In this document: piece by piece, positions 4,635-57,595 of the stretch
Layout of the letters: every line of letters starts with the position of its first letter
Position numbering within the stretch: position 1 is the stretch's first letter
Assembly (NCBI GenBank): GCA_052387555.1
Contig: JBQTJB010000006.1
Location: forward strand, 1-62,422
DNA length: 62,422 bases
Direction of reading: 5' to 3'
Origin: Blastocatellia bacterium
Lineage (GTDB): Bacteria > Acidobacteriota > Blastocatellia > Pyrinomonadales > Pyrinomonadaceae
Made by a program: the position numbers and the translations under genes
The notes under the pieces: model-generated
Databases searched by the model: none
Told to the model about the DNA's origin: nothing
The model's input: the letters and a program-made list of their open reading frames with translations, nothing else

Positions 4635-4706
4635 GCCATACCCTTAGACGCCTTTTTAAACAAAAAGTTCCATGGAAAATTTGTATTTCGGTAAAGCGCC
4701 GCAATA

Positions 4707-5528
4707 ATGAGTTTTGTGAATCGTCTTATGTATTTGAACGGAGAGATCCGTGATGCGGCTAATGCTCTGGTATCGCCGATCTCTGCCTCCGCGCTCTACG
4801 GAAAAGGCATTTTCACGACGATTGCGATATATAACGGAAAGCCGTTCCTTTGGGAAAAGCACTGGCGGCGGTTGTCGGGCAGCGCGGCAAAGATAGGGAT
4901 CGATGTTTCGGAATACGGCGAGCAACGGGTTGCTAGTGCCCTTGCCGATTTGATCGAAAAGAATGGATTAAATAATGGCCGGGCGCGGATAACTTTTTTT
5001 GACGAATCGCCCGGCAGCATTTGGGGTTTCGATAGCGGACAAAAAACAAGCCTGCTAATTACAACAGCAGATTTTCGCCCGTTGCCCGAACATTTCAAAC
5101 TGACCATTTCGCCATACCGCATCAACACGTCATCTCCGCTCGCCGGAATAAAATCCTGCAACTATCTCGAACAACTGATGTCGTTTGACGAAGCAAAGTC
5201 ACGCAGCTTTGACGAGGCAATTCGCCTGAATGAACACGATGAAATCGCGTCGGCCTGTATGGCAAATGTTTTCTGGCTAAAGAATGAAAAACTATACACG
5301 CCAAGCCTGAAAACAGGCTGTCTTGCCGGAACAACGCGTGAGCAAATTTTAGAAAACGTAGACTGCGAAGAGGTTGAATCAGGGATTGAAGCACTGCAAG
5401 ATGCAGACGCGCTCTACCTAAGTTCGGCGGGCATTGGCATTCAACGCATAGGAAAATTCGAAGAACGGTCGCTCCTTCAAGTTGAGCATCCGTTCACAAA
5501 ATTATTATTTCCACGGTTCAAAGTGTAG
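4707..5528 (+). CDS. aminotransferase class IV (PabC / branched-chain-like)
   Basis: Fold-type IV pattern (GKGIFTTI...GRARITF...KSCNYL...GCLAGTTRE). Confidence 0.75.
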   Translation: MSFVNRLMYLNGEIRDAANALVSPISASALYGKGIFTTIAIYNGKPFLWEKHWRRLSGSAAKIGIDVSEYGEQRVASALADLIEKNGLNNGRARITFFDESPGSIWGFDSGQKTSLLITTADFRPLPEHFKLTISPYRINTSSPLAGIKSCNYLEQLMSFDEAKSRSFDEAIRLNEHDEIASACMANVFWLKNEKLYTPSLKTGCLAGTTREQILENVDCEEVESGIEALQDADALYLSSAGIGIQRIGKFEERSLLQVEHPFTKLLFPRFKV

Positions 5529-16513: not shown

Positions 16514-17050
16514 ATGGTGAGACGAAACAAAGTATTATTAACTTTTTCGCTTGCAATCACGATCAGTGCATTTCTGCTGTCTTTTGCAATATCTTTTCAA
16601 TCGCGTGGACTCGATCAAGGACTCGTCATAGGCGAACATCAATTAGATGAGTTTCAAGCTAAGTTAGGTGTGGAGAAGATAATTTTCTCGATTCATGGGT
16701 ATAGAACCTATGAATTGTTCGCATCATCTTATGGACTCATCAGTTTTCTTTTTGCGTTGATATTAGGAGCCATTATTGCTCAACTAATATTAACCAAAAG
16801 ACGACAGTTGCTCGTATTTATTTTCATATTAAATTCTTTGGTATCGGCCCCGATCCTTTACAATCTTCGGTTTTTGATTCGCGACAAACAGATGGTAGAG
16901 GAATCTTTTTGGGAAACCCCAGGGAATGCATTTGCACGCCTTACTATCAGTTACGATTGGGTTTTAGTGTCATTCGTGCTTATTATTCTCTGCCTGCAGA
17001 CAGTTTCTGTGATTTGGTGGCGGAGAGATATTAACAAAATTGCACCATAA
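16514..17050 (+). CDS. hypothetical membrane protein (lower-GC segment)
   Basis: Four or more hydrophobic segments. A 60-nt line hand-counted in the segment gives about 43% GC. Confidence 0.45.
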   Translation: MVRRNKVLLTFSLAITISAFLLSFAISFQSRGLDQGLVIGEHQLDEFQAKLGVEKIIFSIHGYRTYELFASSYGLISFLFALILGAIIAQLILTKRRQLLVFIFILNSLVSAPILYNLRFLIRDKQMVEESFWETPGNAFARLTISYDWVLVSFVLIILCLQTVSVIWWRRDINKIAP

Positions 17051-17115
17051 AATATCATTCTACAGGTCACTCATATTTCAACCAAAAGCAAAATCATCTA
17101 TGTTAAAATCGCGCT

Positions 17116-17316
17116 ATGGAAACCGTAAACGTCAAGATTTTGGAGCCAAAGATTAAGCGATTGCTCGACGATCTTGAAAGCCTAAAACTTATCGAGTTGG
17201 AAAAACCGGGCGCTGCCAAGAAACCAAAACGCCGCTTTGGCAGCATGAAAGGTCTTGTGGTGCAGATAGCCGATGACTTCGATGCCCCGCTCGAAGACTT
17301 TGAGGATTATATGTGA
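17116..17316 (+). CDS. type II antitoxin (DUF2281/VapB-like)
   Basis: C-terminal FGSMKGLVVQIADDFDAPLEDFEDYM motif. Its stop overlaps the vapC start. Confidence 0.7.
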   Translation: METVNVKILEPKIKRLLDDLESLKLIELEKPGAAKKPKRRFGSMKGLVVQIADDFDAPLEDFEDYM

Positions 17317-17696
17317 TGCGCGTTCTCCTGGATACCCAAATACTCTTGTGGTACTTGGAGGGCAATCAGTCCCTTTCGCGGACGCATCGTGATTTGATAG
17401 TCTTTGCTGATAACGAAGTGTTAGTCAGCATAGCGACACTGTGGGAGATTGCGATCAAGACCAGTACGGGAAAGTTAACGATATCCCGCTCACTTACGGA
17501 AATTCTAAAGCAATTGTCGCTGCAATCCATCGAAATTCTCGGCGTTCAGCCCGGGCATGTTCTGCAGGTCGCAAAACTCGCGTTCCACCATCGCGATCCG
17601 TTCGACCGAATGATAATTGCCCAGTCGAAAGTGGAGTTTCTGCCGGTAATAACTCACGACAAGATTTTCTCCGATTACGGAATAAAGCTGTTGTAA
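17316..17696 (+). CDS. vapC: PIN-domain toxin VapC
   Basis: LLDTQILLW...SIATLWEIAIK...DPFDRMIIAQS. ATG overlaps the antitoxin TGA (ATGTGATG). Confidence 0.85.
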   Translation: MRVLLDTQILLWYLEGNQSLSRTHRDLIVFADNEVLVSIATLWEIAIKTSTGKLTISRSLTEILKQLSLQSIEILGVQPGHVLQVAKLAFHHRDPFDRMIIAQSKVEFLPVITHDKIFSDYGIKLL

Positions 17697-17706
17697 CCGC
17701 GTAGGA

Positions 17707-18234
17707 ATGTCTCAAGAAATCAAAATCCGCCAAGCCACTTCCGAAGACGCGAAAGTGTTAACTGATCTCGCCTACACGACTTTCTGGGACGCGTTTGCGC
17801 ATCATCCGAAAAACGCGCCGGAAGATTTGAATCACTATATGCGTCAGGCGTTCAGTCTCGACCAGATCACCGCAGAACTCGCCGACGAAAAGAGCATTTT
17901 CCTGTTGGCCGAGATCGAAGGCGAGCTTGCCGGTTACGCGAAAGTAATCAACGACAACATCGAACCCGGCATCACAGCGGCGCTCCCCATCGAGCTTTCG
18001 CGGCTTTATTCCCAGCAAAAATTCCTCGGCCAAGGCGTCGGGCAAACGCTGATGGACGCGTGTTTCGAAAAGGCAAAGCAGGAAAATCGCGATGTAATGT
18101 GGCTCGGCGTCTGGGAATTCAACCCGCGTGCACAGAAGTTCTATGAGAAAAACGGTTTTATAGTTGTCGGCAAACACACCTTCCAACTCGGCTCCGACCC
18201 GCAGATTGATCTGCTGATGCAGAAAGAGATTTAA
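17707..18234 (+). CDS. GNAT family N-acetyltransferase
   Basis: Motif A QKFLGQGVGQTLM, and FYEKNGF. Confidence 0.85.
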   Translation: MSQEIKIRQATSEDAKVLTDLAYTTFWDAFAHHPKNAPEDLNHYMRQAFSLDQITAELADEKSIFLLAEIEGELAGYAKVINDNIEPGITAALPIELSRLYSQQKFLGQGVGQTLMDACFEKAKQENRDVMWLGVWEFNPRAQKFYEKNGFIVVGKHTFQLGSDPQIDLLMQKEI

Positions 18235-18312
18235 ACCGGGAACTCAGGCGAGGGCTCCTGAGTTCCAAAGGAAATCTTGCATTTTACCTATAGATGAATT
18301 ATTGTTTCATCC

Positions 18313-19323
18313 ATGCGATATATCAAAAATCCGCCGAATCCTTACAACAAATACTCGGCAGAATACATTGGCGAGCCGCCGCCCACAAAGCTAGAGATCT
18401 TCGAAGAAACAGCTACAAAAAAAGTTATTACTAAAGCTTTCGCATCGGATTGGGAAGGCGGCTGGCGATATACGGTGAACTGCTATCGCGGCTGCATTCA
18501 CGGCTGTACCTATTGCTTTGCACGGCAGTATCACGAATATTTGGGCTACGGCGCGGGTACCGATTTTGAGACAAAGATCGTCGTCAAACCCAACACGCCA
18601 AAGCTTTTACGTGATGAATTAAAGAAGACTCGTACCAAAATGCCTCACATCGATTTTTCGTTCGCAACCGATCCGTATCTGCCGTTCGAGGCCGAGTACA
18701 AGCTGACGCGTAAATGTCTTGAGGTCTGTGCGGAGTTCGGCGTTCCGGTCGGTGTAATTACAAAAGCGCCACTTGTGACACGAGATATTGAAATTCTCAA
18801 AAAACTGAAAGTGACCGTCTTTTTCTCGCTTCCGTTCCTTACAAAAGAAAAATCTAATCCTTTCGAACCCTACACGCCCGTTCCCGAAGCCCGTTTCCGC
18901 GCGATGGAAACAATATCGAATGCAGGCATTCCGGTCGGCATAGGCGTCGCTCCGGTAATTCCGGGCTATAACGAATCGGACATTCCCGGCTTGCTCGAAC
19001 GCGCCAAACAAGCCGGAGCGACGCGCGCCTTTATGTCGATGCTGCACATCGACACCGATTCGATCGAAGACTATTTCGTCGCAAAAATGCACGAGCGGCT
19101 GCCGCCGACCCGCGTTACAAAGATCATTAACACGATAAAACGCGAACGCAACGGCTCGCTCAGGCACAGCACTTATAAAGAGCGCGGCGTCGGCAAAACC
19201 GAGCAGTGGGAAATGACGACAAAACTTTTCGAATTTCACGCCCGCCGTTTAGGATTTCGACAGCACGAAAGAAAGGCCGAACCTGAAACGGTTACCGTAC
19301 CCTTTCAGCAAAAGTTGTTCTGA
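18313..19323 (+). CDS. radical SAM protein (PA0069/SPL-like family)
   Basis: CIHGCTYCF cluster and overall family pattern. Confidence 0.8.
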   Translation: MRYIKNPPNPYNKYSAEYIGEPPPTKLEIFEETATKKVITKAFASDWEGGWRYTVNCYRGCIHGCTYCFARQYHEYLGYGAGTDFETKIVVKPNTPKLLRDELKKTRTKMPHIDFSFATDPYLPFEAEYKLTRKCLEVCAEFGVPVGVITKAPLVTRDIEILKKLKVTVFFSLPFLTKEKSNPFEPYTPVPEARFRAMETISNAGIPVGIGVAPVIPGYNESDIPGLLERAKQAGATRAFMSMLHIDTDSIEDYFVAKMHERLPPTRVTKIINTIKRERNGSLRHSTYKERGVGKTEQWEMTTKLFEFHARRLGFRQHERKAEPETVTVPFQQKLF

Positions 19324-19328
19324 CAAGA

Positions 19329-19411
19329 GGCAGAAACACGACCGGTAGGGAGTGTGCCTTACTTACTACATGTAAACCTTTTACACACTCGTTACTGCTC
19401 GTGTTTCTGCC
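19329..19411. repeat. REP-like inverted repeat (family 2: GGCRGAAACACGACCG.TAGGGAG)
   Basis: ggcagaaacacgaccggtagggagtgtg (19329-19356) against the reverse complement of 19384-19411, 24 of 28 matches by hand. A related copy lies at 36245-36274. Confidence 0.8.
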
Positions 19412-19433
19412 TGATGTTCGCTAATCTAGTTTT

Positions 19434-19757
19434 ATGCAAAACCGTATCGAAGTCTTCGAACAAATGCTCGCCGCTGACCCCGACAACACGATGGTGATGT
19501 TCGGCCTCGCAAAGGAATACGAAAAGCTGGGCGAGCATGGCGAAGTGATAAAAATTCTTGAAGACTATCTTTCAAAGGCCGATGACGAGGGAAACGCATA
19601 CGGCACGCTCGCCAAGGCTTACGAACTCTCCGGCGACCGCGAAAAAGCTATCGAAACCAATAGAAAAGGTATCGACGTTGCGACGGCGCACGGCCATCCG
19701 TCAATGGCAAATGAATACAAGATGACGCTCGAAGAAATGTCGGAACCCGCTGCGTAA
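19434..19757 (+). CDS. tetratricopeptide-repeat protein
   Basis: TPR-like helices (FGLAKEYEKLGEH..., LAKAYELSGDREKAIE). Confidence 0.65.
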   Translation: MQNRIEVFEQMLAADPDNTMVMFGLAKEYEKLGEHGEVIKILEDYLSKADDEGNAYGTLAKAYELSGDREKAIETNRKGIDVATAHGHPSMANEYKMTLEEMSEPAA

Positions 19758-19823
19758 GCGGAGGGCCAGTTCGTCGAATACAGTTCATCAAACTGGCCGC
19801 CCGCTTACGCAGGCGGTTCTGAC
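19739..19823. repeat. REP-like inverted repeat (family 1, GGTTCTGAC terminus), 33-nt arms
   Basis: Left arm 19739-19771 and right arm 19791-19823 are complementary in 29 of 33 positions by hand. The arms contain the stop codons of both convergent genes. Confidence 0.9.
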
Positions 19824-20476
19824 CGGCAGGCAACAACAGTCGCCTTTTTAATTCTCACGGGTTTTTCTGGTTTTTCTTCAACGACCGTGGCTTTGTTGAT
19901 CGCCTCGACAACTTCAATTCCTTTTGTTACGCGGCCGAATGCGGCAAACAAGCCGTCAAGATTTGGGGCGGATGAAACGAGAATAAAGAAATTCGTTGTC
20001 GCCTGGTTAGGCTCATCCGGCCGTGCCATCGAAAGAACGCCGCGTTCGTGGATTATCTTGTTAGGTTCATCGGGAATCGTCCGTCGTGCACGCGCTCCCA
20101 TTTCACGCGACACTTTTCCGTCCCGGGTCCAAATGTTGCCGCCTTGGATCACGAAGTTCGGAACGACACGGCTGAATGTGGTCGTATCCAGCAAACCGGT
20201 CGCAGCAAGATTCAAAAAGTTTCGCACCGATTCCGGCGCGAGTTCTGGATACATTTCCAGTTCGATCACGCCTGCTTCAGTATCGAGCGTCACGCATTGC
20301 CCAGCCATGGTCTTAACATCTGCTTTATCAAACGGTTCGGCCTTTGCTACCGGCGTTGGCGTCGGCCGCGCGTTTGTCTTCGCCGGCTCTTTCACTGTCG
20401 GCATCGACTGCTGCCCGATCATAATCGATGCAAAGATTAAAGTATATATCGGTACAAAAAAAATCTTCTTGTGCAT
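19805..20476 (-). CDS. peptidylprolyl isomerase, cyclophilin type, secreted
   Basis: FSRVVPNFVIQGG...GVLSMAR...TNFFI. First ATG at 20474-20476. Confidence 0.9.
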   Translation of the reverse strand: MHKKIFFVPIYTLIFASIMIGQQSMPTVKEPAKTNARPTPTPVAKAEPFDKADVKTMAGQCVTLDTEAGVIELEMYPELAPESVRNFLNLAATGLLDTTTFSRVVPNFVIQGGNIWTRDGKVSREMGARARRTIPDEPNKIIHERGVLSMARPDEPNQATTNFFILVSSAPNLDGLFAAFGRVTKGIEVVEAINKATVVEEKPEKPVRIKKATVVACRSEPPA

Positions 20477-20535
20477 GACCCATATTTTCAAGCAAACCGT
20501 TTTCCGTGTAAAGCATTAGTCTCATGTTCAGTGTT

Positions 20536-20589
20536 TTCTGTGTATTCCGTGGTAAAATACCTGAAATTTAAACCACCGAATACACAGAA
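20536..20589. repeat. 18-bp-stem hairpin of the TTCTGTG..TTCCGTGGT family
   Basis: ttctgtgtattccgtggt (20536-20553) pairs with accaccgaatacacagaa (20572-20589), 17 of 18 complementary. The arm is 16 of 18 identical to 5544-5561. Confidence 0.85.
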
Positions 20590-20614
20590 TTCACCGAGCG
20601 AAACCGGAAACATT

Positions 20615-22300
20615 ATGAAACTACTTGCGCAATCACTTTTCCTCATTCTTGCACTTTTCGCGATCACGTTTGCTCAACGCGAACTCGGCGTTCGCCCGAC
20701 CGAAACCGGCGGGCCGCTCACTTTCGAACAGGCGGTTTTTGATGTTCAGTCTTACGAGGTCAATCTGAACGTAACGCCGAGCGCGAAGTCTATTTCGGGC
20801 GTAACGACCATGATTGCCCGAATCGTCGTCCCGACTAACGTTATCGTTCTCGATCTGGATACGCCGTATAGCATCGAACATATCAGCGACGGCACAAGCG
20901 ATCTGAAATACGAACGTAAGGGCGGCAAGATTTGGGTCTGGTTCGCGATGACGAAGCAGGCCGGTGATGAGATAAAGACGGTGATCAGATATGCCGGAAC
21001 GCCGCGCGAGGCGCCGCGACCGCCCTGGATCGGAGGATTTATCTGGACGAAAACGCCGGGCGGTGCCGATTGGATTTCGATTGCGATGCAAAACGACGGC
21101 GCGGATATTTTGTTTCCGTGCAAGGATCATCCGTCCGACAAACCATCGACGGTAACGATGAATATCTCGGTTCCCGATCCGCTTGTGGCGGTCGGCCCCG
21201 GCAAGCTCGAGGGAACCAAAAAGCCTAATAAGGATCACACGACCTATACCTGGCGAATGACGAATCCGATACCGAATTATTCGATCCTGTTCGATGCCGC
21301 ACCGTATCGCGTGATAAAAGACAGCGTGAAAAGCATCACCGGCGAGACGATCCCTATAGAGTTTTACATCCTGCCGGAAAGCTATGACAACGGCGCAAAG
21401 CTGATAGAAGAAACCAAGAAATACAATGCCTTTTTTGAAAAGTATCTTGGGCCGTTTCCGTTCCGCTCGCAAAAGCTCGGCATTGTCGAAACGCCGCATC
21501 TCGGCATGGAACATTCGACGCACATCGCCTACGGAAATAAATTCAAATACAACGAAGACGGATTCGATTGGCTGATGCTTCACGAATTCGGCCACGAATG
21601 GTGGTCGAACCTCGTCACCGCTTCGGATTGGCGTGACTTCTGGATACACGAGGGGTTTCAGTCCTATATGGATTCGCTTTACCTCGAGCACCTCGGCAAA
21701 AAGGAAGCGTATATGGCCTCGATGCGGGAACGCGCCAAACGGACACGCAATATGCAGCCCGTCGCTCCGCGCGAGGCAAAGATCGCTTACCAGGTCTACA
21801 TGGCCGAGCCCGATTATCTGAGATCGGACGGCGACATCTACGGCAAAGGCGCCGTCGTTCTTCACACGCTTCGATACCTGATCGGCGACGACGCATTCTT
21901 CCGCGCCCTTCGCCGCATGTCATACCCAACCAAAGAAATGGAAAAATGGACCGACGGCCGCCAGACAAGATTGGTGAACACCGATGATTTCCTCTCCATC
22001 GCCGAACAGGAATCAAAAATGGACCTCGACTGGTTTTTCGAGATTTATCTGCGCCAGCCCAAGCTGCCGAAACTCGTCACCACAATAACAATAGACAATG
22101 CTTCCGCAACCGGTTCGCATCCGCAGGTTATGACTTTGCAGTGGGAAACTCCGGAGCGGATGCCATTTCCCATGCCTGTTGAGGTCGAGGTTAATGGGAA
22201 GCCCCAGCGGATTGACATGAAAAGCGGTAAGGGCAGTGTTGAGTTCACCGGCAACCTGCCAGCGGTCGACCCGAAGGGCTGGGTGTTAAAGGCGCAGTAG
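20615..22300 (+). CDS. M1 family metallopeptidase, secreted
   Basis: HEFGHEWWSN zinc motif plus WIHEGF. Signal peptide from internal ATG 20615. Confidence 0.85.
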   Translation: MKLLAQSLFLILALFAITFAQRELGVRPTETGGPLTFEQAVFDVQSYEVNLNVTPSAKSISGVTTMIARIVVPTNVIVLDLDTPYSIEHISDGTSDLKYERKGGKIWVWFAMTKQAGDEIKTVIRYAGTPREAPRPPWIGGFIWTKTPGGADWISIAMQNDGADILFPCKDHPSDKPSTVTMNISVPDPLVAVGPGKLEGTKKPNKDHTTYTWRMTNPIPNYSILFDAAPYRVIKDSVKSITGETIPIEFYILPESYDNGAKLIEETKKYNAFFEKYLGPFPFRSQKLGIVETPHLGMEHSTHIAYGNKFKYNEDGFDWLMLHEFGHEWWSNLVTASDWRDFWIHEGFQSYMDSLYLEHLGKKEAYMASMRERAKRTRNMQPVAPREAKIAYQVYMAEPDYLRSDGDIYGKGAVVLHTLRYLIGDDAFFRALRRMSYPTKEMEKWTDGRQTRLVNTDDFLSIAEQESKMDLDWFFEIYLRQPKLPKLVTTITIDNASATGSHPQVMTLQWETPERMPFPMPVEVEVNGKPQRIDMKSGKGSVEFTGNLPAVDPKGWVLKAQ

Positions 22301-22302
22301 TA

Positions 22303-22758
22303 ATGCCTCGTCGAAAGCAGCTTAAGAATATCGTTGCCGGGCTACTTGGAACGTTCACAAGCAGGAACAACGACATTTCCGGCTATTGGGGATTAGGCTT
22401 ACTGCGTCGTTACGCCGAAAATCTCGGGAGAGACTCACTTGAAATCGATCTGCTTTCAAGTGTTTCCGACGAACCGGCGGACGCGCCACTTGATCTGATT
22501 GAGCAGCGTTACAGAAAATGGCTATCTGACGCATTTGCTCAACGGACCGTCCGCACTGATGAAATCAAATCTGCCGTCATCAAGCTTCGCTTCTCAACCT
22601 TCGAGGAGTTTCCGAACGTCGAGCGCCTGACCCGGGGCGAACCTTACGCCTGCTCCGTCCATATTACAAACGCACAAGGCATTGAATATTCGGCCTCATG
22701 CACCGGCGTTTGCGCTCCTCATGATGCGGGGATTGAGTTAAGGAGTACCCGCGCTTGA
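22303..22758 (+). CDS. hypothetical protein
   Basis: 151-aa ORF starting 2 nt after the peptidase stop. No motif recognised. Confidence 0.45.
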   Translation: MPRRKQLKNIVAGLLGTFTSRNNDISGYWGLGLLRRYAENLGRDSLEIDLLSSVSDEPADAPLDLIEQRYRKWLSDAFAQRTVRTDEIKSAVIKLRFSTFEEFPNVERLTRGEPYACSVHITNAQGIEYSASCTGVCAPHDAGIELRSTRA

Positions 22759-22922
22759 AGGTTTAGAGGCCTAATCGATTTCCGCTAATTGCGAATCCTG
22801 CCGTGGCAAGGGGCAGAGGCCGGAGATCTCTCGGTGGGCGAAGCGTCGGATCAACTTGCGCACTTGGTCTGATCTGAAAATTCGTTGCCTTCATCCTGCT
22901 TCCTGTATATCCTGAACTCATC

Positions 22923-23140
22923 ATGAACGCACTACTTGAACAAGGTCTAAACTGCCGGCTGCCGAGCGGCGACGGCTGGCCGACGACATTTATGACAGCA
23001 TTGTTCATGGACCTGACGATTTAAGTTTGACTGACGAGCAGAAAACGGAAATCGACCGTCGGCTGGCAGACTATCGTGAGAATCCGGAGAAAGCATTGGC
23101 ATGGGAAGATGTGCGCGAACGTCTTCGCAAGATCGCATAA
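22923..23140 (+). pseudogene. frameshifted antitoxin (putative addiction-module component, TIGR02574-like) of the ParE/RelE toxin
   Basis: ATG 22923 gives MNALLEQGLN and then a short wrong-frame tail ending at TAA 23022. The frame starting at 22949 reads KLPAAERRRLADDIYDSIVHGPDDLSLTDEQKTEIDRRLADYRENPEKALAWEDVRERLRKIA and stops at 23138-23140, overlapping the toxin ATG. One missing A in ctaaactg would restore a single frame. Confidence 0.6.
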
Positions 23141-23439
23141 TGTTTGCGGTCAAGTTTCATGAAGCCGCCGATCTGGAAGCCGCCGAAGCCATCGCCTACT
23201 ATGAGGATAGCGAAGAAGGACTTGGCAGTGCCCTTCGGGTGGAGATTGAGGTAACTGTCGAAAGAGTAATCCAGCATCCTCTGGTTTATCCGGTAGTTTA
23301 TCGTTCAAACGTCCGCCGAGCACTAACCCACCGATTTCCATACTCGCTTAACTTCACACTCGAAGAGCGATTCATCCTCATCATTGCTGTCTTTCATTCA
23401 AGCAGAGATCTGATTGTGTGGAAGGGCAGGATCGATTAG
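23140..23439 (+). CDS. type II toxin, ParE/RelE family
   Basis: FHEAADLEAAEAIAYYE...RRALTHRFPYSLNF...IIAVFHSSRD. TAATG overlap with the upstream antitoxin frame. Confidence 0.8.
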   Translation: MFAVKFHEAADLEAAEAIAYYEDSEEGLGSALRVEIEVTVERVIQHPLVYPVVYRSNVRRALTHRFPYSLNFTLEERFILIIAVFHSSRDLIVWKGRID

Positions 23440-23544
23440 TTCTTACCTTGCCGTACAACCTTCAAAATTGCCCCTACCCGCCCTTTTTGGTATCTTAAAC
23501 AGTTACCGAGCTATTAGATATTTTTATTGAAAGGATTTATTTTG

Positions 23545-25824
23545 ATGTCGACATCAGCAAAGAAAATTAACACAAAAGGCGATAAAAAAGAGGCAAACGG
23601 CAAGACGGTCGTTGCCGAAAGGACGAGGACAACGGAGGCCGATGGATTTGTGCAGGACGAGAAATTACAAGAGACGGCCAAAGCCTTAACGCCTAACTCC
23701 GTAAAACCAGCTACGGGCAAGTCAAATGACCGCCACGGTTTGGATGAAAAAACGCTCATCGGCATTTATCGCACGATGTACACGTCCCGCCGGGTTGACG
23801 ACAAAGAAATTCAGCTAAAGGGACAGAACAAGATCTTCTTTCAGATCAGCGGCGCGGGCCACGAAGCCGTTCTCACCGCCGCCGCTCTTGCGATGAAGCC
23901 CGGTTACGATTGGTTTTTCCCATATTATCGCGACCGTGCATTGATGATCGGACTTGGAATGACTGCTCAGGAAATGCTCTGGTCGGCGGTTGGTGCGGAA
24001 AAAGACCCTAATTCGCACGGCCGCCAGATGCCTTCTCATTGGGGCAGCGTGAAATTGAATGTTCCGTCGCAGTCTTCATGCACCGGCACGCAGGCATTAC
24101 ACTCGGTCGGCGCGGCGGAGGCCGGTTACCGCGCATCGCTCTTCAAAGAACTACAAGATAAGATCGTCGGCTTCAAGGGCGACGAGGTCGTTTATATGTC
24201 GGTTGGCGACGGCACGACCAGCGAGGGCGAATGGTGGGAAGCCCTGAACACCGCCAGCAATCTGAAACTGCCGGTCATCTTCGTAGTCGAAGACAATGGC
24301 TACGCTATCTCGACGCCGGTTGAGGTCGGCACGGCTGGCGGGGACATTTCAAGGCTCGTCTCCGGGTTCCCCGATCTTTACATGCAAAAGATCGACGGCA
24401 CCGACGCTCTCGAAAGCTACGGAGCGTTCAAAAGCGCGGTCGAGTATTGTAGGGCGCGAAAGGGCCCCGCGTTTATTCATGCAAAGGTCATCCGCCCGTA
24501 TTCGCATTCGCTTTCGGACGACGAAAAGCTCTATCGTCCGGCCGAAGAGCTGCATGCTGATGCAGTCATAGACCCAATAAAAAAGTATGCCGAGTTTTTG
24601 ATGACCGAGGACCTAGCGTCATCGGAACAGCTTGAAACGTTGAGAAAAGAGGTAGATGCTGAGGTTAATTCGGCCGCGGACATCGCCATTGAAACACCGC
24701 AGCCCGCACCCGAAACCGCATACCGTAATGTATTTTCGCCGGATCTCGACCCGACCGACCGACAGCTTTTCGATACAGAAAACGGGGCCGAGCTTTCCGG
24801 CAATGCCGGCACTATGGTCGACTTGATAAATCGCTGCATGCACGAGGAAATGGAGCGCGATCCGCGCATCGTCGTCTTTGGCGAGGACGTGGCTGATTGC
24901 TCTCGCGAGGAATATCTCGATCAGGTTAAAGGAAAAGGCGGCGTTTTCAAGGTGACGGCTAACCTTCAGCGTAAGTTCGGTTCGGCCCGCGTTTTCAATT
25001 CGCCGCTGGCTGAAGCAAACATCGTCGGACGCGCGGTAGGCATGGCGATACGCGGGCTGAAGCCGGTCGTCGAGATCCAGTTTTTCGATTATATTTTCCC
25101 GGCGTTTCACCAGATCCGCAATGAGGTCGCGGTTACCCGTTGGCGCTCGGACGGCGACACCAAATGCCCGATGGTCATTCGCGTACCGGTCGGCGGTTAT
25201 CTGAAAGGCGGAGCGGTTTATCACTCGCAATCCGGCACGACGCTCTTTTCGCACACGCCGGGCTTGATGATCGTCTATCCGTCCACTGCATTGGATGCAA
25301 ACGGGTTATTGCGAACCGCGATCCGCGCGGACGACCCAGTTTTGTTTCTCGAACACAAGCATCTCTACCGTCAGGTCTACAACAAATCGCAATACCCTTC
25401 GAACGATTTTTTGATCCCGTTCGGCAAAGCGAGAATGGTACGCGAGGGCACGGATGTAACTATCGTCACGTTCGGAGCTCTGGTCGAGCGGTCAAATCAG
25501 GCCTGCAAACGTCTCGAACAGCAGGGCATCTCAGTCGAACTGATCGATCTGCGCACGCTCGTCCCATACGACTGGGAAGCCATCGCCGAATCCGTCAAAA
25601 AAACCTCGCGCGTCGTCGTCGCCCACGAAGACCCGATCTCATACGGTTACGGAGCCGAGATCGCCGCCCGCATCTCCGACGAGCTTTTCGAATACCTCGA
25701 CGCTCCCGTCCGCCGCGTCGGCGCCACCGACACCTTCGTCGCGTACGCCCCACAGGTCGAAGATTTCATCCTCCCGCAGTCAGAGGATGTCGAGAAAGCC
25801 GTGCAGGATTTGATGAAATACTAA
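23545..25824 (+). CDS. 2-oxoacid dehydrogenase E1 component, fused alpha/beta subunits (ThDP-dependent)
   Basis: Alpha part [14 protein letters not shown]...[15 protein letters not shown]. Beta part [14 protein letters not shown]...[11 protein letters not shown]. Confidence 0.9.
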
Positions 25825-25878
25825 ACTGAGAGCGTAAACCACGGTTGACATTTTGATAGTGTAAACTTTAGTATACAT

Positions 25879-26175
25879 ATGGTCGAAATTGTTAAAAGCG
25901 ATACTTTCGACCGATGGCTGAGGAAACTGCGAGACCCCCAAGCGAAAGCTCGAATCGAGATGCGAATTCGAAGGCTCAGTTTGGGAAACGCCGGTGATGC
26001 CAAACCCGTTGGGGAAGGGCTTAGCGAGATGAGGATCGATTACGGACCCGGGTATCGAGTGTATTACCTTCAAAAGGGCAACACCTTAGTCGTATTGCTG
26101 TGCGGCGGAGATAAACGCACCCAACAAAACGATATAGATAGCGCTAAGAGAATTGCTGCAGATTGGACGGAGTAA
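25879..26175 (+). CDS. addiction-module killer protein (RelE/HigB-like, TIGR02683-type)
   Basis: TFDRWLRKLRD..AKARI..RIRRLSLGN.GD.KPVGEGLSEMRIDYGPGYRVYY. Confidence 0.85.
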   Translation: MVEIVKSDTFDRWLRKLRDPQAKARIEMRIRRLSLGNAGDAKPVGEGLSEMRIDYGPGYRVYYLQKGNTLVVLLCGGDKRTQQNDIDSAKRIAADWTE

Positions 26176-26177
26176 AA

Positions 26178-26465
26178 ATGGCCGAGAAATTTAGTCAATA
26201 CGATACGGCCGAGTACTTGGAAACTGACGAGGACATACGGCATTATCTGGAAGCCTGTCAAGAGGACGGAGACCCGGCGCTCATTGCTGCGGCGCTAGGT
26301 GACATAGCCCGGGCACGAAACATGACCGAGCTCGCCAGATCTGCAGGAATGACGAGGGCCGGATTGTATAAGGCTCTGTCGCCCGAAGGCAATCCGAGTT
26401 TTGCCACAGTATCAAAGGTAGCCAAGGCATTGGGCCTGAAAGTCAAGATCGAGTTGGCCTCCTAA
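26178..26465 (+). CDS. addiction-module antidote protein (HigA-like HTH, TIGR02684-type)
   Basis: YLE..EDI..YLEA...DGDPALIAAALGDIARARNMTELA...GLYKALS.EGNPSFATV.KV.KALGL. Confidence 0.85.
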   Translation: MAEKFSQYDTAEYLETDEDIRHYLEACQEDGDPALIAAALGDIARARNMTELARSAGMTRAGLYKALSPEGNPSFATVSKVAKALGLKVKIELAS

Positions 26466-26480
26466 GTAAGATAAGGCTTT

Positions 26481-26591
26481 CGTGTCGGCGCCACTGACAC
26501 CTTCGTCGGCTACGCCCCGCAGCTCGAAGATTTCATCCTGCCGCAGTCGGAGGATGTCGAAGCCGGTGTGCGGGATTTGATGAGGTACTAA
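26481..26591 (+). pseudogene. orphan diverged duplicate of the last 37 codons (with stop) of the E1 gene
   Basis: Reads [36 protein letters not shown], against the gene end [36 protein letters not shown] at 25714-25824. 95 of 111 nt are identical by hand alignment. Confidence 0.9.
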
Positions 26592-26628
26592 ATCTGCGTA
26601 GGTTTTTCGGTGTTCTTCTCTTTGAAGC

Positions 26629-27180
26629 ATGCGAAAGCTAATTGACTCGATCGCCGTATTAGGATTTGTCTTGATCGTTGTTGTCTCCGTTTCGGCGCAG
26701 GCCGCGGAAGATAAGCGCGTCGAGCCGTTCGTCTCTGAGGAATGCGGTTTCAGCGTGTTGTTCCCGGCAAAGCCCAAGCTGGATACTGACGTGCTCGACA
26801 CCGCGAGTGCCCGCAAATATCTTACGTATTCTTATTACGTATCGGACCAGACCGAGACTCAATATGAGGTTGTGTGTATGGAATTGACTCCGGATCGTTT
26901 GAAGGGTGGGGCAGCCGTCAACCTCGGGTCATATTACAACGAAGCAATTCTGCCTTACGCGGAGAAGGTGCTCAGAAAGACCGCCCTAAGGCCCCCCAAC
27001 GGTGTAGGTCTGGAGTTTTATGTAGAATACGGGACATCGTATTTTAGGCGCGGCAAAGTGATGATCATCGGTACTCGCCTGTATCGAGTCGAGGTTAATG
27101 GCACCAGAGAACAAACGGCGAGCGCCAAAGCCAAGCATTTTATTGATTCCTTCAAGCTATCGAGCCAGGGCCGTAATTAG
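26629..27180 (+). CDS. hypothetical secreted protein
   Basis: Signal peptide MRKLIDSIAVLGFVLIVVVSVSAQA. No domain recognised. Confidence 0.5.
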   Translation: MRKLIDSIAVLGFVLIVVVSVSAQAAEDKRVEPFVSEECGFSVLFPAKPKLDTDVLDTASARKYLTYSYYVSDQTETQYEVVCMELTPDRLKGGAAVNLGSYYNEAILPYAEKVLRKTALRPPNGVGLEFYVEYGTSYFRRGKVMIIGTRLYRVEVNGTREQTASAKAKHFIDSFKLSSQGRN

Positions 27181-27215
27181 ACAACTCAGAGCGATTGGCA
27201 AAGGCTCACTGGTAA

Positions 27216-27905
27216 ATGACCAAACACATAGGCATTGTCGCTGGTAGTGCTGAGGGAGCGGCGCTTTGTTACCGCACGATCTGTCTTGAGGCGCAAGAGT
27301 TTCTTGGCGAGCACAACCATCCGGAAGTGACGATGAACTCGATCCCGATGGCGCGGCACATGCCGCCGATCATCGCGGACGATTGGAAAACGGTCGCCGA
27401 CCTGATGCTCGAATCGGTCGAAAAGGTCGCACGGGCGGGAGCCGATTTCGCCATCTGTCCTGATAACACCTACCACCAGGCTTTCGAATTTCTCATCCCG
27501 CGTTCGCCGATCCCGTGGCTGCATATTGCACGCGTTGTCGGTGAAAAGGCGAACGAAAGCGGATTCAAAAAACTCGGTATCCTGGGAACAAAATACCTCG
27601 CGGAAGGGCCCGTTTATCCGTCTCAGTTGAACGAAGTCGGCATCGAACGGGAGATACCCAACGAAGAAGATCGGATCCGTATCAACGAGATCATTTTCAA
27701 AGAACTCGTCAACGGCGTCTTTCTTGAATCTTCGCGGCTTTATTTTAACGAAGTAACCGAGAAGCTAAAAGCACGCGGCTGCGATGCCGTTGTGCTCGGC
27801 TGTACCGAGATTCCATTGATCGTACGCCCGAACGACTGTCCGCTTCCGACGCTTGATTCAACACGTTTGCTTGCGCGAGCAGCGATCAAGAACGCGCTAG
27901 AATAG
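27216..27905 (+). CDS. aspartate/glutamate racemase family protein
   Basis: Asp_Glu_race-like pattern: GIVAGSAEGAA, then DFAICPDNTYH and VVLGCTEIPL carrying the candidate catalytic Cys residues. Confidence 0.8.
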   Translation: MTKHIGIVAGSAEGAALCYRTICLEAQEFLGEHNHPEVTMNSIPMARHMPPIIADDWKTVADLMLESVEKVARAGADFAICPDNTYHQAFEFLIPRSPIPWLHIARVVGEKANESGFKKLGILGTKYLAEGPVYPSQLNEVGIEREIPNEEDRIRINEIIFKELVNGVFLESSRLYFNEVTEKLKARGCDAVVLGCTEIPLIVRPNDCPLPTLDSTRLLARAAIKNALE

Positions 27906-27910
27906 CGGCA

Positions 27911-29446
27911 ATGAATCATTTCATCGCGATACTTCTTACCTTATCTCTAATCGTCTCGACCGTCGGACAATCAACCTCGTCGCTTTCAGTTCGTGAATTT
28001 CGCAAAGCGAACGAGCAACGACTTCTAAATGAATTCGTCGAGCTTCTCTCGATCCCAAACGTCGCCTCCGACACGCCGAATATTCGTAAGAACGCCGGCT
28101 ATCTCGTCGCCGAGATGCAGAAACGCGGGCTGAGACCGCGGCTGCTCGAGGCTGCTGACAAAAAAGTCCCGCCGGTGGTTTACGGAGAATGGGTGACGGC
28201 CGGCGCGGCGAAGACGGTGATCTTTTACGCGCATTATGACGGGCAGCCGACGGACCCGGCGGATTGGACGGGGAGCAAGCCGTGGGAGCCGGTATTGAGA
28301 ACGGCGGCGCTCGAGAAGGGCGGGAAGGATATTCCATTTCCGAAAGCAGGTGAAAGGATCGATCCTGAGTGGCGACTGTATGGGCGTTCGACGTCGGATG
28401 ACAAGGCTGGTGTGTTTGCGATGCTCACGGCGCTCGACGCTTTACGCGCTAAGAACATCAAGCCGACGGTCAATATCAAGTTTTTCTTCGAAGGCGAGGA
28501 AGAGGCAGGCTCGCCGAACCTTCGCGAGATACTGACAAAGAACAAGGAATTGCTTAAGGCCGACGCCTTTATCGTCTGCGACGGGCCGGTACATCAGTCG
28601 GGGCGAAAGCAGGTCGTCTTCGGCGTTCGCGGCGACGTTAATGTCGATCTTACCGTTTACGGAGCAAAGCGGCCGCTGCACAGCGGGCATTACGGCAACT
28701 GGTCTCCGAATCCCGCGATGCTGCTTGCCAGGCTTCTTGCGTCGATGAAAGACGCGGACGGGAACGTGACCGTCAAAGGCTGGTACGACGATGTCGAGCC
28801 GTTTGGGCCAGCCGAGATGAAGGCCCTCGCCGAGGCTCCGCGATATGACGAACAGCTAAAGCGCGAGCTTGGCATCGCCTACACTGAGGGCGGCGGCAAG
28901 AGCCTGCTCGAGCGTATCAGCCAGCCATCGCTCAATATCAACGGCATCAAAAGCGGCGATGTCGGCGAGAAGGCGCGAAATATCATACCGACGACGGCGA
29001 CAACGGTGCTCGACCTTCGCCTCGTAAAAGGCAACGATCACATTCGCCAGGTCGCAAAATTAAAGAGGCATATCGAATCGCAGGGCTACTACGTCATCGA
29101 TCGTGATCCCACAGACGAAGAGCGGCAGCGGCATCCGCTGATCGCAAAGTTTCAGCACGTTCCCGGCAGCTACAACGCCCAGCGGACAAAAATGGATCTT
29201 CCCATCTCGCTGGCGGTGATCGACGCGGTTCAGAGAACTTCGACGGAACCGATCATTCGAATGCCGAGCTTAGGCGGCAGTCTTCCGCTGTCTATCATCA
29301 CCGACGCCCTAAACCAGCCGACGATCACCGTACCGGTCGCAAACCACGACAATAATCAGCACGCCGAGAATGAGAACATACGCATTCAGAATTTGTGGGA
29401 CGGCATCGAGATTTTCGCATCACTCATGACGCTGAAATGGGATTAG
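27911..29446 (+). CDS. M20 family dipeptidase/peptidase, secreted
   Basis: YAHYDGQP, GRSTSDDKAG, FFFEGEEEAGSP. Confidence 0.85.
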   Translation: MNHFIAILLTLSLIVSTVGQSTSSLSVREFRKANEQRLLNEFVELLSIPNVASDTPNIRKNAGYLVAEMQKRGLRPRLLEAADKKVPPVVYGEWVTAGAAKTVIFYAHYDGQPTDPADWTGSKPWEPVLRTAALEKGGKDIPFPKAGERIDPEWRLYGRSTSDDKAGVFAMLTALDALRAKNIKPTVNIKFFFEGEEEAGSPNLREILTKNKELLKADAFIVCDGPVHQSGRKQVVFGVRGDVNVDLTVYGAKRPLHSGHYGNWSPNPAMLLARLLASMKDADGNVTVKGWYDDVEPFGPAEMKALAEAPRYDEQLKRELGIAYTEGGGKSLLERISQPSLNINGIKSGDVGEKARNIIPTTATTVLDLRLVKGNDHIRQVAKLKRHIESQGYYVIDRDPTDEERQRHPLIAKFQHVPGSYNAQRTKMDLPISLAVIDAVQRTSTEPIIRMPSLGGSLPLSIITDALNQPTITVPVANHDNNQHAENENIRIQNLWDGIEIFASLMTLKWD

Positions 29447-29550
29447 TCACAAAATAAGCGTGGACAAGAACGGCCCGGATCTTCGTGACAATTACAAAGG
29501 AAGACATCAACAGCCGCATTGAATTTGTTTTTTTATGAATCCGCGCTTAA

Positions 29551-29637
29551 CCTACGTCTGTCTGCGAAGAACTCGTCCGAAATTGGGAACGAGCGGCGGC
29601 AAAAGAAAGTATTCACAAGATCGATCCATTGGAGTAA
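29551..29637 (+). pseudogene. 3' remnant of a DUF4160-type gene (usual partner of DUF2442)
   Basis: Frame reads PTSVCEELVRNWERAAAKESIHKIDPLE*, ending 2 nt before the DUF2442 ATG. That is a typical DUF4160 C-terminus, but an in-frame TAA sits at 29548 and no N-terminal part is visible. Confidence 0.35.
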
Positions 29638-29639
29638 CT

Positions 29640-29882
29640 ATGAAAAATGGATACAAAAACGGGTACCTTCCCCGAGTTACCGAAGCTGATTATCTCGGCA
29701 ATTATCGGATAAAACTCACTTTCAGCAATGGTGAACAACGAATTGCTGATTGTGAGAAATGGATCGGCGGAGGCGTCTTTGAGCCGCTGAGAGACAAGAA
29801 TTTTTTTCAGAAGTTCTTCGTTGACGGTTGGACTATATCTTGGCCTAACGGCGCAGACATTGCCCCCGAAACACTCTACTAA
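29640..29882 (+). CDS. DUF2442 domain protein
   Basis: RVTEADYLGNYRIKLTFSNGEQRIADCEKW... pattern. GGAG lies 5 nt upstream of ATG 29640. Confidence 0.7.
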   Translation: MKNGYKNGYLPRVTEADYLGNYRIKLTFSNGEQRIADCEKWIGGGVFEPLRDKNFFQKFFVDGWTISWPNGADIAPETLY

Positions 29883-29997
29883 GATGGCGAACCGATCAAA
29901 GACTGAGGTATCTCTGTCGCCTACCCCCACTGGTCGTGGATTTCACCCTGCCGAAGAGCCATGATGTTGAAAAAGCGGCCCTTGAGTCAGTAAAGTA

Positions 29998-30026
29998 TTG
30001 ATGTTTGCGAAAAATAGGTATAGTAT
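29998..30026 (+). promoter_or_regulatory. possible sigma70-type promoter for the small peptide gene
   Basis: TTGATG, then a 15-17 nt spacer, then TATAGT or TAGTAT. Confidence 0.3.
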
Positions 30027-30116
30027 CAACGATGCGTTCGGGCAAATGCCGCCGAATCGGTGCCGGCGGCAGATCAGATTGCCCATACCCATTGCACCAT
30101 ATACAGGAGAAAACCG

Positions 30117-30326
30117 ATGAGGAAAAAAATTGCATCATTGATGCTCCTCTTGACCTTCACAATAGCCTCTGTCGGTGTTGTAAGCGCTTCTATTTACAAC
30201 GAAAAACGTTACAGCCAGTGCCACGATGCAGACGGAAAATTCATCGAAAGCAAGGACTGTGATCCGACTTCCTGCGGTTGTTTGTTCCATGAAATCGAAG
30301 AGTTTATAAAAGGACTGTTCGATTAG
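30117..30326 (+). CDS. small secreted Cys-containing protein (69 aa)
   Basis: CAGGAGA RBS, signal peptide MRKKIASLMLLLTFTIASVGVVSA, and 4 Cys in the mature part. Confidence 0.5.
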   Translation: MRKKIASLMLLLTFTIASVGVVSASIYNEKRYSQCHDADGKFIESKDCDPTSCGCLFHEIEEFIKGLFD

Positions 30327-30376
30327 TTTTTTTGGCCCCAAGTAGCTTGCAGTAAAGGAACTTCCCGAAAAAATAA

Positions 30377-30416
30377 AAGTCCAAGCGAAATTTCGTCTTG
30401 GACTTTTTTCTTTTTT
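30377..30416 (+). terminator. rho-independent terminator
   Basis: aagtccaag-cgaaatttcgt-cttggactt followed by a T-run. Confidence 0.7.
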
Positions 30417-30578
30417 CCCCGGGAAAAGGGAACCGCTTCTCGGCGGCTCCCCTCCCTTTGTAGCTTAAAGGAATGAGTCCGAATCGCTCCGGACTCACGT
30501 AAGATTCCGATAAAGTCTGTCAATCGCAAATAATATTTCAACAACCAGTCTAAATTCGCCTATGAATGGAGTATTAAG

Positions 30579-31379
30579 TTAAAACGAAGCCAATTTATAG
30601 ACGCCGGTTGCCAGCCTTTCTGCGAATTTTTCATCTACCAACTGATGGTTTGCCAGTCCCGATTCCCATCGGTAAAACCCGAATTTGCCCGAGAGTTCGC
30701 CTAGCAGCGTTATTCCGCACATTTGCAGATAGCAGCGGGCAAGTTCGCGGACGGCTTCGTTACGCGGCATCTTGATGTCCATTTCTTCGGGAAACCGCGC
30801 TTCGGCGAGCGTCCAGATGTAAGTAAATTTCGGGACGTAAACGACCTCGGCGGGGACGACCTTCATGCGGCGTTGGAGTTCGTCGATCGCTTTTGTCAGG
30901 TCTTTCTTGTCCTTGAACCCGCATTCCGCTCGCAGGTCGCTCGTCGCCATTTCCCATTCCTTGCGGAGCACTTTCAACACAGCTTGCGCGTTTTTCGAAA
31001 GAATTCCGCTCTCGCCTTTTCGCGAACAGCCCCAAAGAGCATTGAAAACGGGAATCATCCGTCGCGAAAGAAACATCGAATGGCCCTTCACCAATTTTGC
31101 GTAATAGACGCGTCCGCGCGCGATAACTTCGTCTTTCAAAACCCACGCCTTGCTTGCCTCGGGGTCTTTCTGAACATTTCGCGGCATATGCGCGTCGCGG
31201 CGGCCGCAGACGGCGATGTAAACGGACGGAAGATTTTTGCGCACGTCAGTCAGACCGAGACAAAAGCCCAGATCTTCAACTATTGCCTCGACCTGCTCGG
31301 CAGTTTCAATCTTGAGCGAATCCTCACGCCGCCACTTGCGGTCGCGGTATTGTTCGATCTCTTCGGGCAGCTCACGCAT
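30579..31379 (-). CDS. winged-helix protein, AlkZ/YcaQ-related (tentative)
   Basis: 266-aa ORF with clear coding character. The family assignment comes from general resemblance only. Confidence 0.45.
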   Translation of the reverse strand: MRELPEEIEQYRDRKWRREDSLKIETAEQVEAIVEDLGFCLGLTDVRKNLPSVYIAVCGRRDAHMPRNVQKDPEASKAWVLKDEVIARGRVYYAKLVKGHSMFLSRRMIPVFNALWGCSRKGESGILSKNAQAVLKVLRKEWEMATSDLRAECGFKDKKDLTKAIDELQRRMKVVPAEVVYVPKFTYIWTLAEARFPEEMDIKMPRNEAVRELARCYLQMCGITLLGELSGKFGFYRWESGLANHQLVDEKFAERLATGVYKLASF

Positions 31380-31387
31380 ATATAGTT

Positions 31388-31530
31388 AACCGCAGATGAA
31401 CGCAGATTTACGCGGATGGGATATGATAGTCAAAAAGAAAATGCCGGGCAATCTTGTGAACGCCCGGCCCTATTTTTGTTAGAAGATCGTCTTCTAACCT
31501 ATTTGTGTTTATCCGTGTCCATTTGCGGTT
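31388..31530. repeat. inverted arrays of a 10-nt unit flanking a terminator hairpin
   Basis: aac cgcagatgaa cgcagattta cgcggatggg (31388-31420) against atttgtgttt atccgtgtcc atttgcggtt (31501-30). 21 of 30 positions match plus 5 G-U compatible, by hand. Confidence 0.7.
31429..31468 (-). terminator. rho-independent terminator of the 31529-33130 gene
   Basis: gccgggc...gcccggc stem followed on the minus strand by attttcttttt. Confidence 0.6.
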
Positions 31531-57573: not shown

Positions 57574-57595
57574 ATTCGAGACAAGTTGTGTTTTT

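Follow-up and report, generated by a model that had tools for sequence, protein, structure and literature searches.

Partial copies of an E1 dehydrogenase gene end as probable scars of homology-anchored insertion at an apparent hotspot in Pyrinomonadaceae

Contig JBQTJB010000006.1 of a Blastocatellia bacterium (assembly GCA_052387555.1) carries a gene for a fused alpha/beta E1 component of a 2-oxoacid dehydrogenase, and the 3' end of this gene recurs twice downstream of it, first behind a toxin-antitoxin (TA) pair and again, in decayed form, further on. We analysed this region in the whole stretch of 62,422 nt (hereafter the window). The features at the center of the analysis are the following.

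23527-25824, plus strand: fused alpha/beta E1 of a 2-oxoacid dehydrogenase, 765 aa (PF00676, PF02779, PF02780)
25714-25824, plus strand: copy 1, the functional 3' end of E1 (37 codons, TAA included)
25825-25878, plus strand: TA leader, kept in L010, L119, L198, L204 and L206 (L numbers designate loci of relatives)
25879-26175, plus strand: toxin, 98 aa, RelE/ParE superfamily of the HI1419 / Gp49 type (TIGR02683, 1.6e-41; PF05973)
26178-26465, plus strand: antitoxin, 95 aa, helix-turn-helix (HTH) protein of the HI1420 type (TIGR02684, 8e-37; PF21716, 2.6e-27)
26481-26591, plus strand: copy 2, non-coding remains of the same E1 end (37 codons, TAA included)
29909-30000, plus strand: copy 3, a decayed, frame-broken E1 tail of roughly the last 95 nt (nhmmer, E = 3.9e-11)

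The recurrence of the last 111 nt of E1 after the TA pair had been noticed in the original prediction made on this DNA, and it is confirmed here both by a repeat search (direct repeat 25714-25825 and 26481-26592, spacing 767 nt, 85% identity) and by a self-BLAST of the whole 62-kb window, in which copies 1 and 2 pair with E = 1.4e-28 and no other significant direct repeat was found. A position-by-position count gives 94 of 111 identical nucleotides, close to the 95 reported before; 12 codons differ, half of them by synonymous and half by non-synonymous changes (6 each), and TAA ends both copies. The alignment also bears out the earlier statement that copy 2 has its own TAA and a sharp left boundary: similarity to E1 begins at codon R729 (CGTGTCGGCGCC), and 5' of it lie the 15 nt of spacer that follow the antitoxin stop. 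Copy 2 lacks a start codon and has in-frame stops on its 5' side (S*VR*GF RVGATD..., asterisks marking the stops), which makes it a non-coding relic. Nor does it belong to a longer truncated E1 paralog in the window, a description that does apply to the L130 locus treated below. The original prediction counted a single duplicate; copy 2 is real, but the third E1 tail had been overlooked. In a search of the window with a profile built from E1 3' ends, copy 3 was found; it immediately follows a DUF2442 gene, itself preceded by the 3' remnant of a DUF4160 gene, shares 47 of 62 nt (76%) with copy 1, has one deletion and is orthologous to fragment cB of L010 and to the fragment of L116. A CATCCTC-N9-GAGGATG inverted repeat in copy 1 was considered as a possible structure and rejected, as it is not conserved in relatives.

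To place the repeats in context, the 62-kb window was compared with 22-kb loci of relatives, about 200 E1 loci being covered overall. E1 orthologs from 80 loci in Pyrinomonadaceae and other Acidobacteriota place the window in the Pyrinomonadaceae. Both an empty site and sites occupied by other cargo, which the original prediction had named as what to look for in related genomes, were found. In L001, L002 and L178, the distance from E1 to a convergent AlkZ-like gene is 50-133 nt, and the spacer consists essentially of a terminator hairpin; L178 is the closest relative found, its E1 agreeing with that of the window in 97% of the C-terminal 330 amino acids. The same spacer measures 4.76 kb in the window and 477 to 6367 nt in other close relatives, with differing gene content. 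Moreover, eight related Pyrinomonadaceae sequences bear one to three extra E1 tails 3' of E1, each after a different cargo module, and of the 120 loci retrieved from metagenomes with a 23-nt tail pattern, 6 have extra tails. The order of modules after E1 in these relatives is given below.

L010 (E1 and three fragments): DUF305 + LVIVD, tail, DUF4160 + DUF2442, tail, the same TA, truncated tail, further sequence with M20, then the AlkZ-like gene
L119: TA, tail
L198: Mrr_cat nuclease + DUF4145, tail, TA, tail
L116: DUF4160 + DUF2442, tail
L173: Unstab_antitox + ParE, then an antitoxin remnant and a tail
L111: M16 peptidase, weak tail, racemase
L130: long E1 fragment, without a cargo gene

E1 is intact in all of these arrays, and all cargo between tails lies on the E1 strand. 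Cargo can also occupy the E1 site without a fragment, as seen for the DUF module in L081 and for the TA pair in L201, where no remnant is recognisable; in L204 and L206, the TA pair is accompanied by tail remnants of only ~20 nt. The best explanation is that the spacer between E1 and the AlkZ-like gene is a hotspot of insertion and recombination in one Pyrinomonadaceae clade.

It is also evident that the left edges of the fragments, expressed as the distance from the E1 stop, vary among arrays.

Fragment after the TA pair: -111 nt
Fragment after DUF2442 (L116 and window copy 3): about -95 nt
L010, fragment cA: about -110 nt
L198, second fragment (end2): -170 nt
L130 fragment: at least -458 nt

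An independent -111 edge in L173 was considered and rejected: the L173 fragment comes after ~40 nt from the 3' end of the HI1420 antitoxin gene and thus descends from the TA junction. In L130, no fewer than 458 nt of E1 3' sequence (4232-4689) lie ~150 nt past a complete E1 and its terminator, and the contig ends inside them. This distal fragment is 78% identical to the resident E1 and 90.8% identical to the E1 of L123. Since it matches the L123 lineage, a tail can arrive with incoming DNA. The functional 3' end of the L130 gene agrees phylogenetically with the gene body. The original prediction had the displaced native end left distal; a displaced end is indeed what is seen, but the distal copy in L130 is foreign and not native. 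For the window, nearest-neighbour comparison of the 111 nt and of its halves with ~200 E1 tails gave no clear assignment of donor and native copy, because relatives are only 80-90% identical across E1 and 111 nt is too short. A comparison of L119 with L198 indicates that the last ~45 nt of the tail 5' of a cargo go with that cargo, so that E1 is rebuilt by a cargo-linked 3' end at a site that is empty in relatives. The sequence 3' of copy 2 is not homologous to that 3' of the L165 E1 stop, save for the region upstream of the racemase gene.

The TA junction is an old one. Pairwise nucleotide identities are 0.73-0.84 for the TA pair and 0.77-0.86 for E1, and a recent horizontal spread of the TA cassette is unsupported, the two ranges being similar. 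The unit of leader, TA pair and fragment aligns end to end among the window, L010, L119 and L198, and the sequence to its right differs from lineage to lineage. The junction of TA pair and fragment is also present in L119, L198 and L173, with cut-down remnants in L010, L204 and L206. This distribution implies that the junction arose once, long ago, and that the fragment has since been shortened in several lineages; the TA pair, found across species whose E1 genes are ~20% different, is by the same token old at this site. Recombination among tails is visible as well. Between L119 and L198 the TA pair is 95.6% identical and the adjacent fragment only 79%; the L198 tail 5' of the TA pair is 92% identical to the functional E1 tail of L119; and the functional tail of L198 itself is foreign in its last ~45 nt, beside the Mrr cargo. 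The window and L010 hold the same modules (DUF4160/DUF2442 with tail, TA with tail) in permuted order, and ~35 nt after copy 3 weakly resemble the TA leader. Because copy 2 is only 15% off copy 1, though the junction predates species ~20% apart in E1, occasional gene conversion between the window tails is suggested.

The anatomy of the locus, the arrays, the empty sites, the varied boundaries, one foreign fragment and the lack of recombinase genes in the examined part are observations, and it is from these that we infer the recombination pathway and the direction of each event. On a slight balance of probability, the tails are scars of homology-anchored insertion at the hotspot, by Campbell-type single crossover or by homology-facilitated illegitimate recombination (HFIR), and were later reshuffled. 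In E. coli, a single crossover of circularised DNA with a shortened homologous gene end yielded end duplications of 109-950 bp, and in HFIR one homologous end and one illegitimate end are joined (PMC3240628). At E1, foreign or rearranged DNA would enter with the well-conserved E1 gene as homologous anchor. It might do so as a circularised fragment bearing a shortened E1 3' end together with neighbouring genes, integrated by a Campbell-type single crossover, or through HFIR as a linear fragment with its homologous end in E1 and the other end joined illegitimately inside the resident tail. Either route would leave E1 intact, the cargo at the stop codon and, distal to it, a partial tail with an event-specific left edge, and repeated events would pile up units of cargo and tail. 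RecA-dependent recombination and gene conversion between tails could then delete, permute and homogenise the units. In the window, the HI1419/HI1420 TA pair would represent one old cargo and copy 2 its non-coding scar. What is expected of such scars, a partial duplication of the anchoring gene beside the insert with an event-specific length, is found in the arrays, and L130 provides the case in which one copy comes from a lineage other than that of the resident gene.

Several observations weigh against homology-anchored insertion. No tail fragments of the AlkZ-like gene were found in the variable regions of 16 loci; only E1 tails occur, which makes the process asymmetric. The boundaries of three cargo types cluster between -95 and -116 nt, inter-tail cargo always runs in the direction of E1, and several genes begin a mere 2-10 nt beyond the stop, which gives a cassette-like picture. 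Microhomology at the junctions is tentative, being a possible CACC overlap at one junction, that of DUF2442 and tail (L081 versus L116). Because E1-only tails, clustered boundaries and uniform cargo orientation are poorly explained by homology-anchored insertion, a trans-acting recombinase is kept as a rival.

In this rival, which we consider unlikely but worth taking seriously, integrase-less cassettes are moved by a site-specific recombinase encoded elsewhere, with an attB site in the E1 3' end and arrays formed by tandem accretion, so that the newest cassette lies next to E1. It would accommodate insertion exactly at the E1 stop with the tail rebuilt, as seen in nine or more genomes and for six or more types of cargo, as well as the grouped boundaries, the tails of E1 and never of the neighbouring gene, and the co-oriented, often promoterless cargo that begins 2-10 nt past the stop. 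An inverted repeat, GTGTCGG-N5-CTGACAC, at the left edge of copy 2 points in the same direction. However, no integrase or recombinase was found by Pfam in the scanned cargo proteins of the window and related arrays or in the tested window open reading frames (ORFs), which agrees with the earlier remark that the TA cassette has no integrase. The census behind this result covered ~30 variable regions and 55 cargo clusters, most of them scanned by Pfam and the rest judged by eye, a few short singletons being left out. A constant att core is not seen, since the left edges range from about -95 to at least -458 nt; those at -170 and at least -458 nt misfit a single att site, and the -111 edge in L173, inherited from the TA junction, is not an independent instance. 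An attB core would tend to give an excess of synonymous-site conservation, and the E1 tail is without such an excess: the third-codon-position entropy over the last 40 codons is 1.24-1.27 bits, as against 0.9-1.41 elsewhere in the gene. Because third-position variability is ordinary, no DNA-level site appears to be embedded in the tail. Similarly, an attC-like or other special fold of the tail DNA was not found above shuffled controls (z-scores -0.6 to -1.9), and among integron features there is neither an integrase near E1 nor an attC-type fold. The E1 tail was not found in viral contigs (searched with two patterns) or in phage and plasmid records, only distant TA homologs being seen on plasmids. 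One metagenome (X1) holds the locus, as Logan contigs of ~5x only, and no excision or circle joints were seen at that depth. The site can also contain the same cargo unaccompanied by a fragment, and the TA junction is ancient and mostly decaying rather than turning over.

A stronger form of the recombinase proposal, still less likely than the proposal itself, takes the E1 tails as working recombination sites of a cassette system on a housekeeping gene, with an unlinked recombinase and expression by read-through from E1. Its cassettes would be small, oriented alike and for the most part without a promoter; each would bring along ~100 nt copied from the 3' end of E1 and be inserted at the E1 stop, the cargo being TA pairs, the DUF4160/DUF2442 pair, a restriction-type nuclease and metal-related genes. 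If true, Acidobacteriota would have a functional counterpart of the integron in which the end of a coding sequence acts as attC/attI.

Degraded islands and tandem duplication fit less well than a trans-acting recombinase. That the TA pair and tails are the remains of a larger island or prophage targeting the E1 3' end, with the integrase lost and the addictive TA pair kept, is very unlikely in our estimation. The geometry is that of integrative elements carrying a replacement 3' end, the classic case being phage 21 and e14 at icd in E. coli; TA modules are common as island-stabilising cargo, and this TA family is spread over phyla and plasmids. However, in every genome having the fragment, the leader directly follows the E1 stop and the fragment begins 15 nt after the antitoxin stop, and because the TA unit abuts both so closely, there is no trace of other island genes. 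The same history would, in addition, be needed independently for at least five other cargo modules, and an integrase-bearing version was found neither among the ~200 E1 loci nor in viral contigs. The original prediction had read the locus as an element that carries a replacement 3' end, and the geometry stands, with cargo after the stop, a distal tail and ~45 nt that follow the cargo, but a discrete integrating element is not supported. Its comparison to integration in the manner of tRNA islands likewise lacks support, given the varied edges, the absence of a recombinase from the cargo examined, the ordinary synonymous variability, the lack of the tail in phage, viral and plasmid records and the old junction. 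Finally, a local tandem duplication of the E1 tail, with unrelated genes inserted between the copies later, is extremely improbable: although the fragment of at least 458 nt in L130 follows a complete E1 by ~150 nt with no cargo gene between, that second copy comes from another lineage and is no duplicate of the resident, the 15% difference between copies 1 and 2 is about what separates E1 genes of different species, the upstream tail changes with the cargo in its last ~45 nt, and every one of several cargo types would call for its own duplication and its own insertion.

The TA pair itself is, on sequence grounds, an ordinary member of the HI1419/HI1420 family of type II TA systems, with a HigBA-like gene order and a predicted toxin activity. 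It shares with that family strong matches to the hidden Markov models, a toxin-first order with a 2-nt intergenic gap (an arrangement kept in 7 genomes) and a palindrome overlapping the promoter. The toxin exceeds the curated cut-offs of TIGR02683 (140.6 bits versus 62.85) and PF05973 (28.8 versus 23.9), and the antitoxin that of TIGR02684 (125.3 bits versus 53.7); no HigB- or HigA-specific models appear in the hit lists for the window pair, the toxin matches being Gp49 (PF05973) and RelE/ParE-family models. The leader contains a promoter-like site, TTGACA-18-TAGTAT (25845-25874), which is a consensus-level match only, and a near-palindrome, GTAAAC-N4-GTTGAC, overlaps its -35 hexamer and is followed by a second GTAAAC; this arrangement is conserved in relatives, and a promoter function may be supposed. 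The pair probably persists through addiction or defence, under its own autoregulated promoter, a function that we infer from its family and leader. A protein database yielded 7544 toxin homologs at E <= 1e-20, and the three closest homologs on long contigs all come from Pyrinomonadaceae-like genomes, where they too lie 3' of E1. Even proteobacterial members share 75-84% identity with the toxin; matches in this range comprise thousands of proteins, one of them named from Candidatus Thiosymbion (Gammaproteobacteria), and such conservation across phyla is unusually high for a small toxin.

Beyond copy 2, the variable region of the window contains the following features.

26629-29446, plus strand: three-gene block of a hypothetical protein (183 aa), an Asp/Glu racemase (27216-27905) and an M20 peptidase (27911-29446)
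29564-29882, plus strand: DUF4160 3' remnant (29564-29633) and intact DUF2442 gene (29634-29882)
30579-31379, minus strand: AlkZ-related gene ('gene X'), convergent with E1 (PF24741, 2.6e-30; synteny)

The three-gene block belongs to the content of the variable region and is partly common to L010, L111, L165, L201, L204 and L206, and the AlkZ-like gene forms the far edge. The DUF4160/DUF2442 module is that of L010 (15168-15694), L116 and L081; together with copy 3 it makes up one block (29564-30013) that is 77% identical to L010 15355-15814. In L010 the M20 peptidase gene (16972-18511) is split into overlapping ORFs (16972-17418 and 17210-18511), for which a frameshift or an assembly error of the metagenome-assembled genome is possible. 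An 88-aa, Cys-containing, signal-peptide-like ORF (30060-30326) adjoins the AlkZ-like gene of the window; it has no Pfam match, and L119 has in the corresponding place a 70-aa ORF (4985-5197) that looks similar by eye. In L144 (segment 192-515) and L003 (segment 231-626), a small gene, presumably of the GxxExxY type as judged from its sequence, lies inside the loop of the terminator hairpin between E1 and the AlkZ-like gene, as an occupant of another kind that leaves no E1 tail.

Variation extends to the spacer on the other side of E1, toward an M1 peptidase gene (window 22300-23527). It is occupied in the window by a 151-aa ORF and a ParE-like ORF (23101-23439; PF05016 at 4e-4, under the cut-off) and in L204 by an Unstab_antitox gene and a 100-aa ORF, and the distance between M1 peptidase and E1 is 177 nt in L001 and 4.6 kb in L038. 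Two long imperfect hairpins (19323-19417 and 19739-19823), with arms of 34 and 40 bp that are 80-82% complementary, surround a 107-aa ORF (19434-19757), and an Rfam scan of window positions 19000-31500 gave no match. Elsewhere, the window encodes further proteins of defence or addiction type, namely a PIN-domain (VapC-like) protein (17313-17696), a DUF4411 protein beside an IrrE-peptidase/HTH protein (50397-52075) and an HNH endonuclease beside an N6/N4 DNA methylase (56995-58438).

Many integrative and conjugative elements (ICEs) and islands are known to integrate at the 3' ends of tRNA or protein genes with a replacement end. The E1 locus resembles these and the elements of the phage 21 / e14 type in that the insert supplies the functional end and a diverged end is displaced, the differences being largely synonymous or conservative. 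However, elements of the phage 21 / e14 type have their own integrase and one fixed att core, whereas neither was found here, some units measure only 0.5-0.8 kb and the fragment edges vary. Tandem units without a recombinase are known from the pseudo-SCC and SCC composites at rlmH of staphylococci, from the CIMEs of streptococci and from the partial tRNA repeats of Prochlorococcus islands. As at E1, several units stand behind one gene, each bounded by a partial copy of its 3' end, and many lack a recombinase; unlike E1, where neither was found, these arrays have short uniform att cores and recombinase-bearing members. Integron cassette arrays likewise have small, co-oriented, often promoterless cassettes that include TA pairs, with a ~100-nt repeat after each at one site, but no IntI was found at E1, and the E1 repeats are coding-sequence copies of variable length without an attC-type fold.

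Minimal mobile elements of Neisseria are strain-specific small cassettes that occupy the space between the same core genes, have no mobility genes and have their exchange attributed to homologous recombination in the flanks, and the E1 locus behaves as a comparable hotspot driven by homologous recombination (PMC3787668). It differs from them in that E1 tail fragments are kept between the modules, where they record the events and give an internal homology arm. Minimal mobile elements are not known to leave a duplicated flanking-gene fragment inside the region. The closest mechanistic parallel drawn here, Campbell-type or HFIR integration, shares with E1 a partial gene-end duplication of variable length, one homologous and one illegitimate junction and the lack of a dedicated recombinase (PMC3240628). 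The difference is that such integration is deduced here from natural genomes of uncultured Acidobacteriota, is repeated at one gene and has built arrays.

These results have a bearing on annotation, in that a gene-end duplication around a small cassette mimics an att pair and need not mean an integrative element. If a trans-acting recombinase were involved, the cassette system would be an undescribed one and the locus much more interesting. As it stands, the E1 locus is a readable record of successive gene acquisitions, in which each tail marks a joint of incoming DNA. If homology-anchored recombination is the true explanation, the duplicated tail would be a portable homology arm for the deletion, permutation and transfer of modules, and one-sided homology would, in natural populations of uncultured soil Acidobacteriota, load TA and defence-type genes beside a core gene without the machinery of mobile elements.

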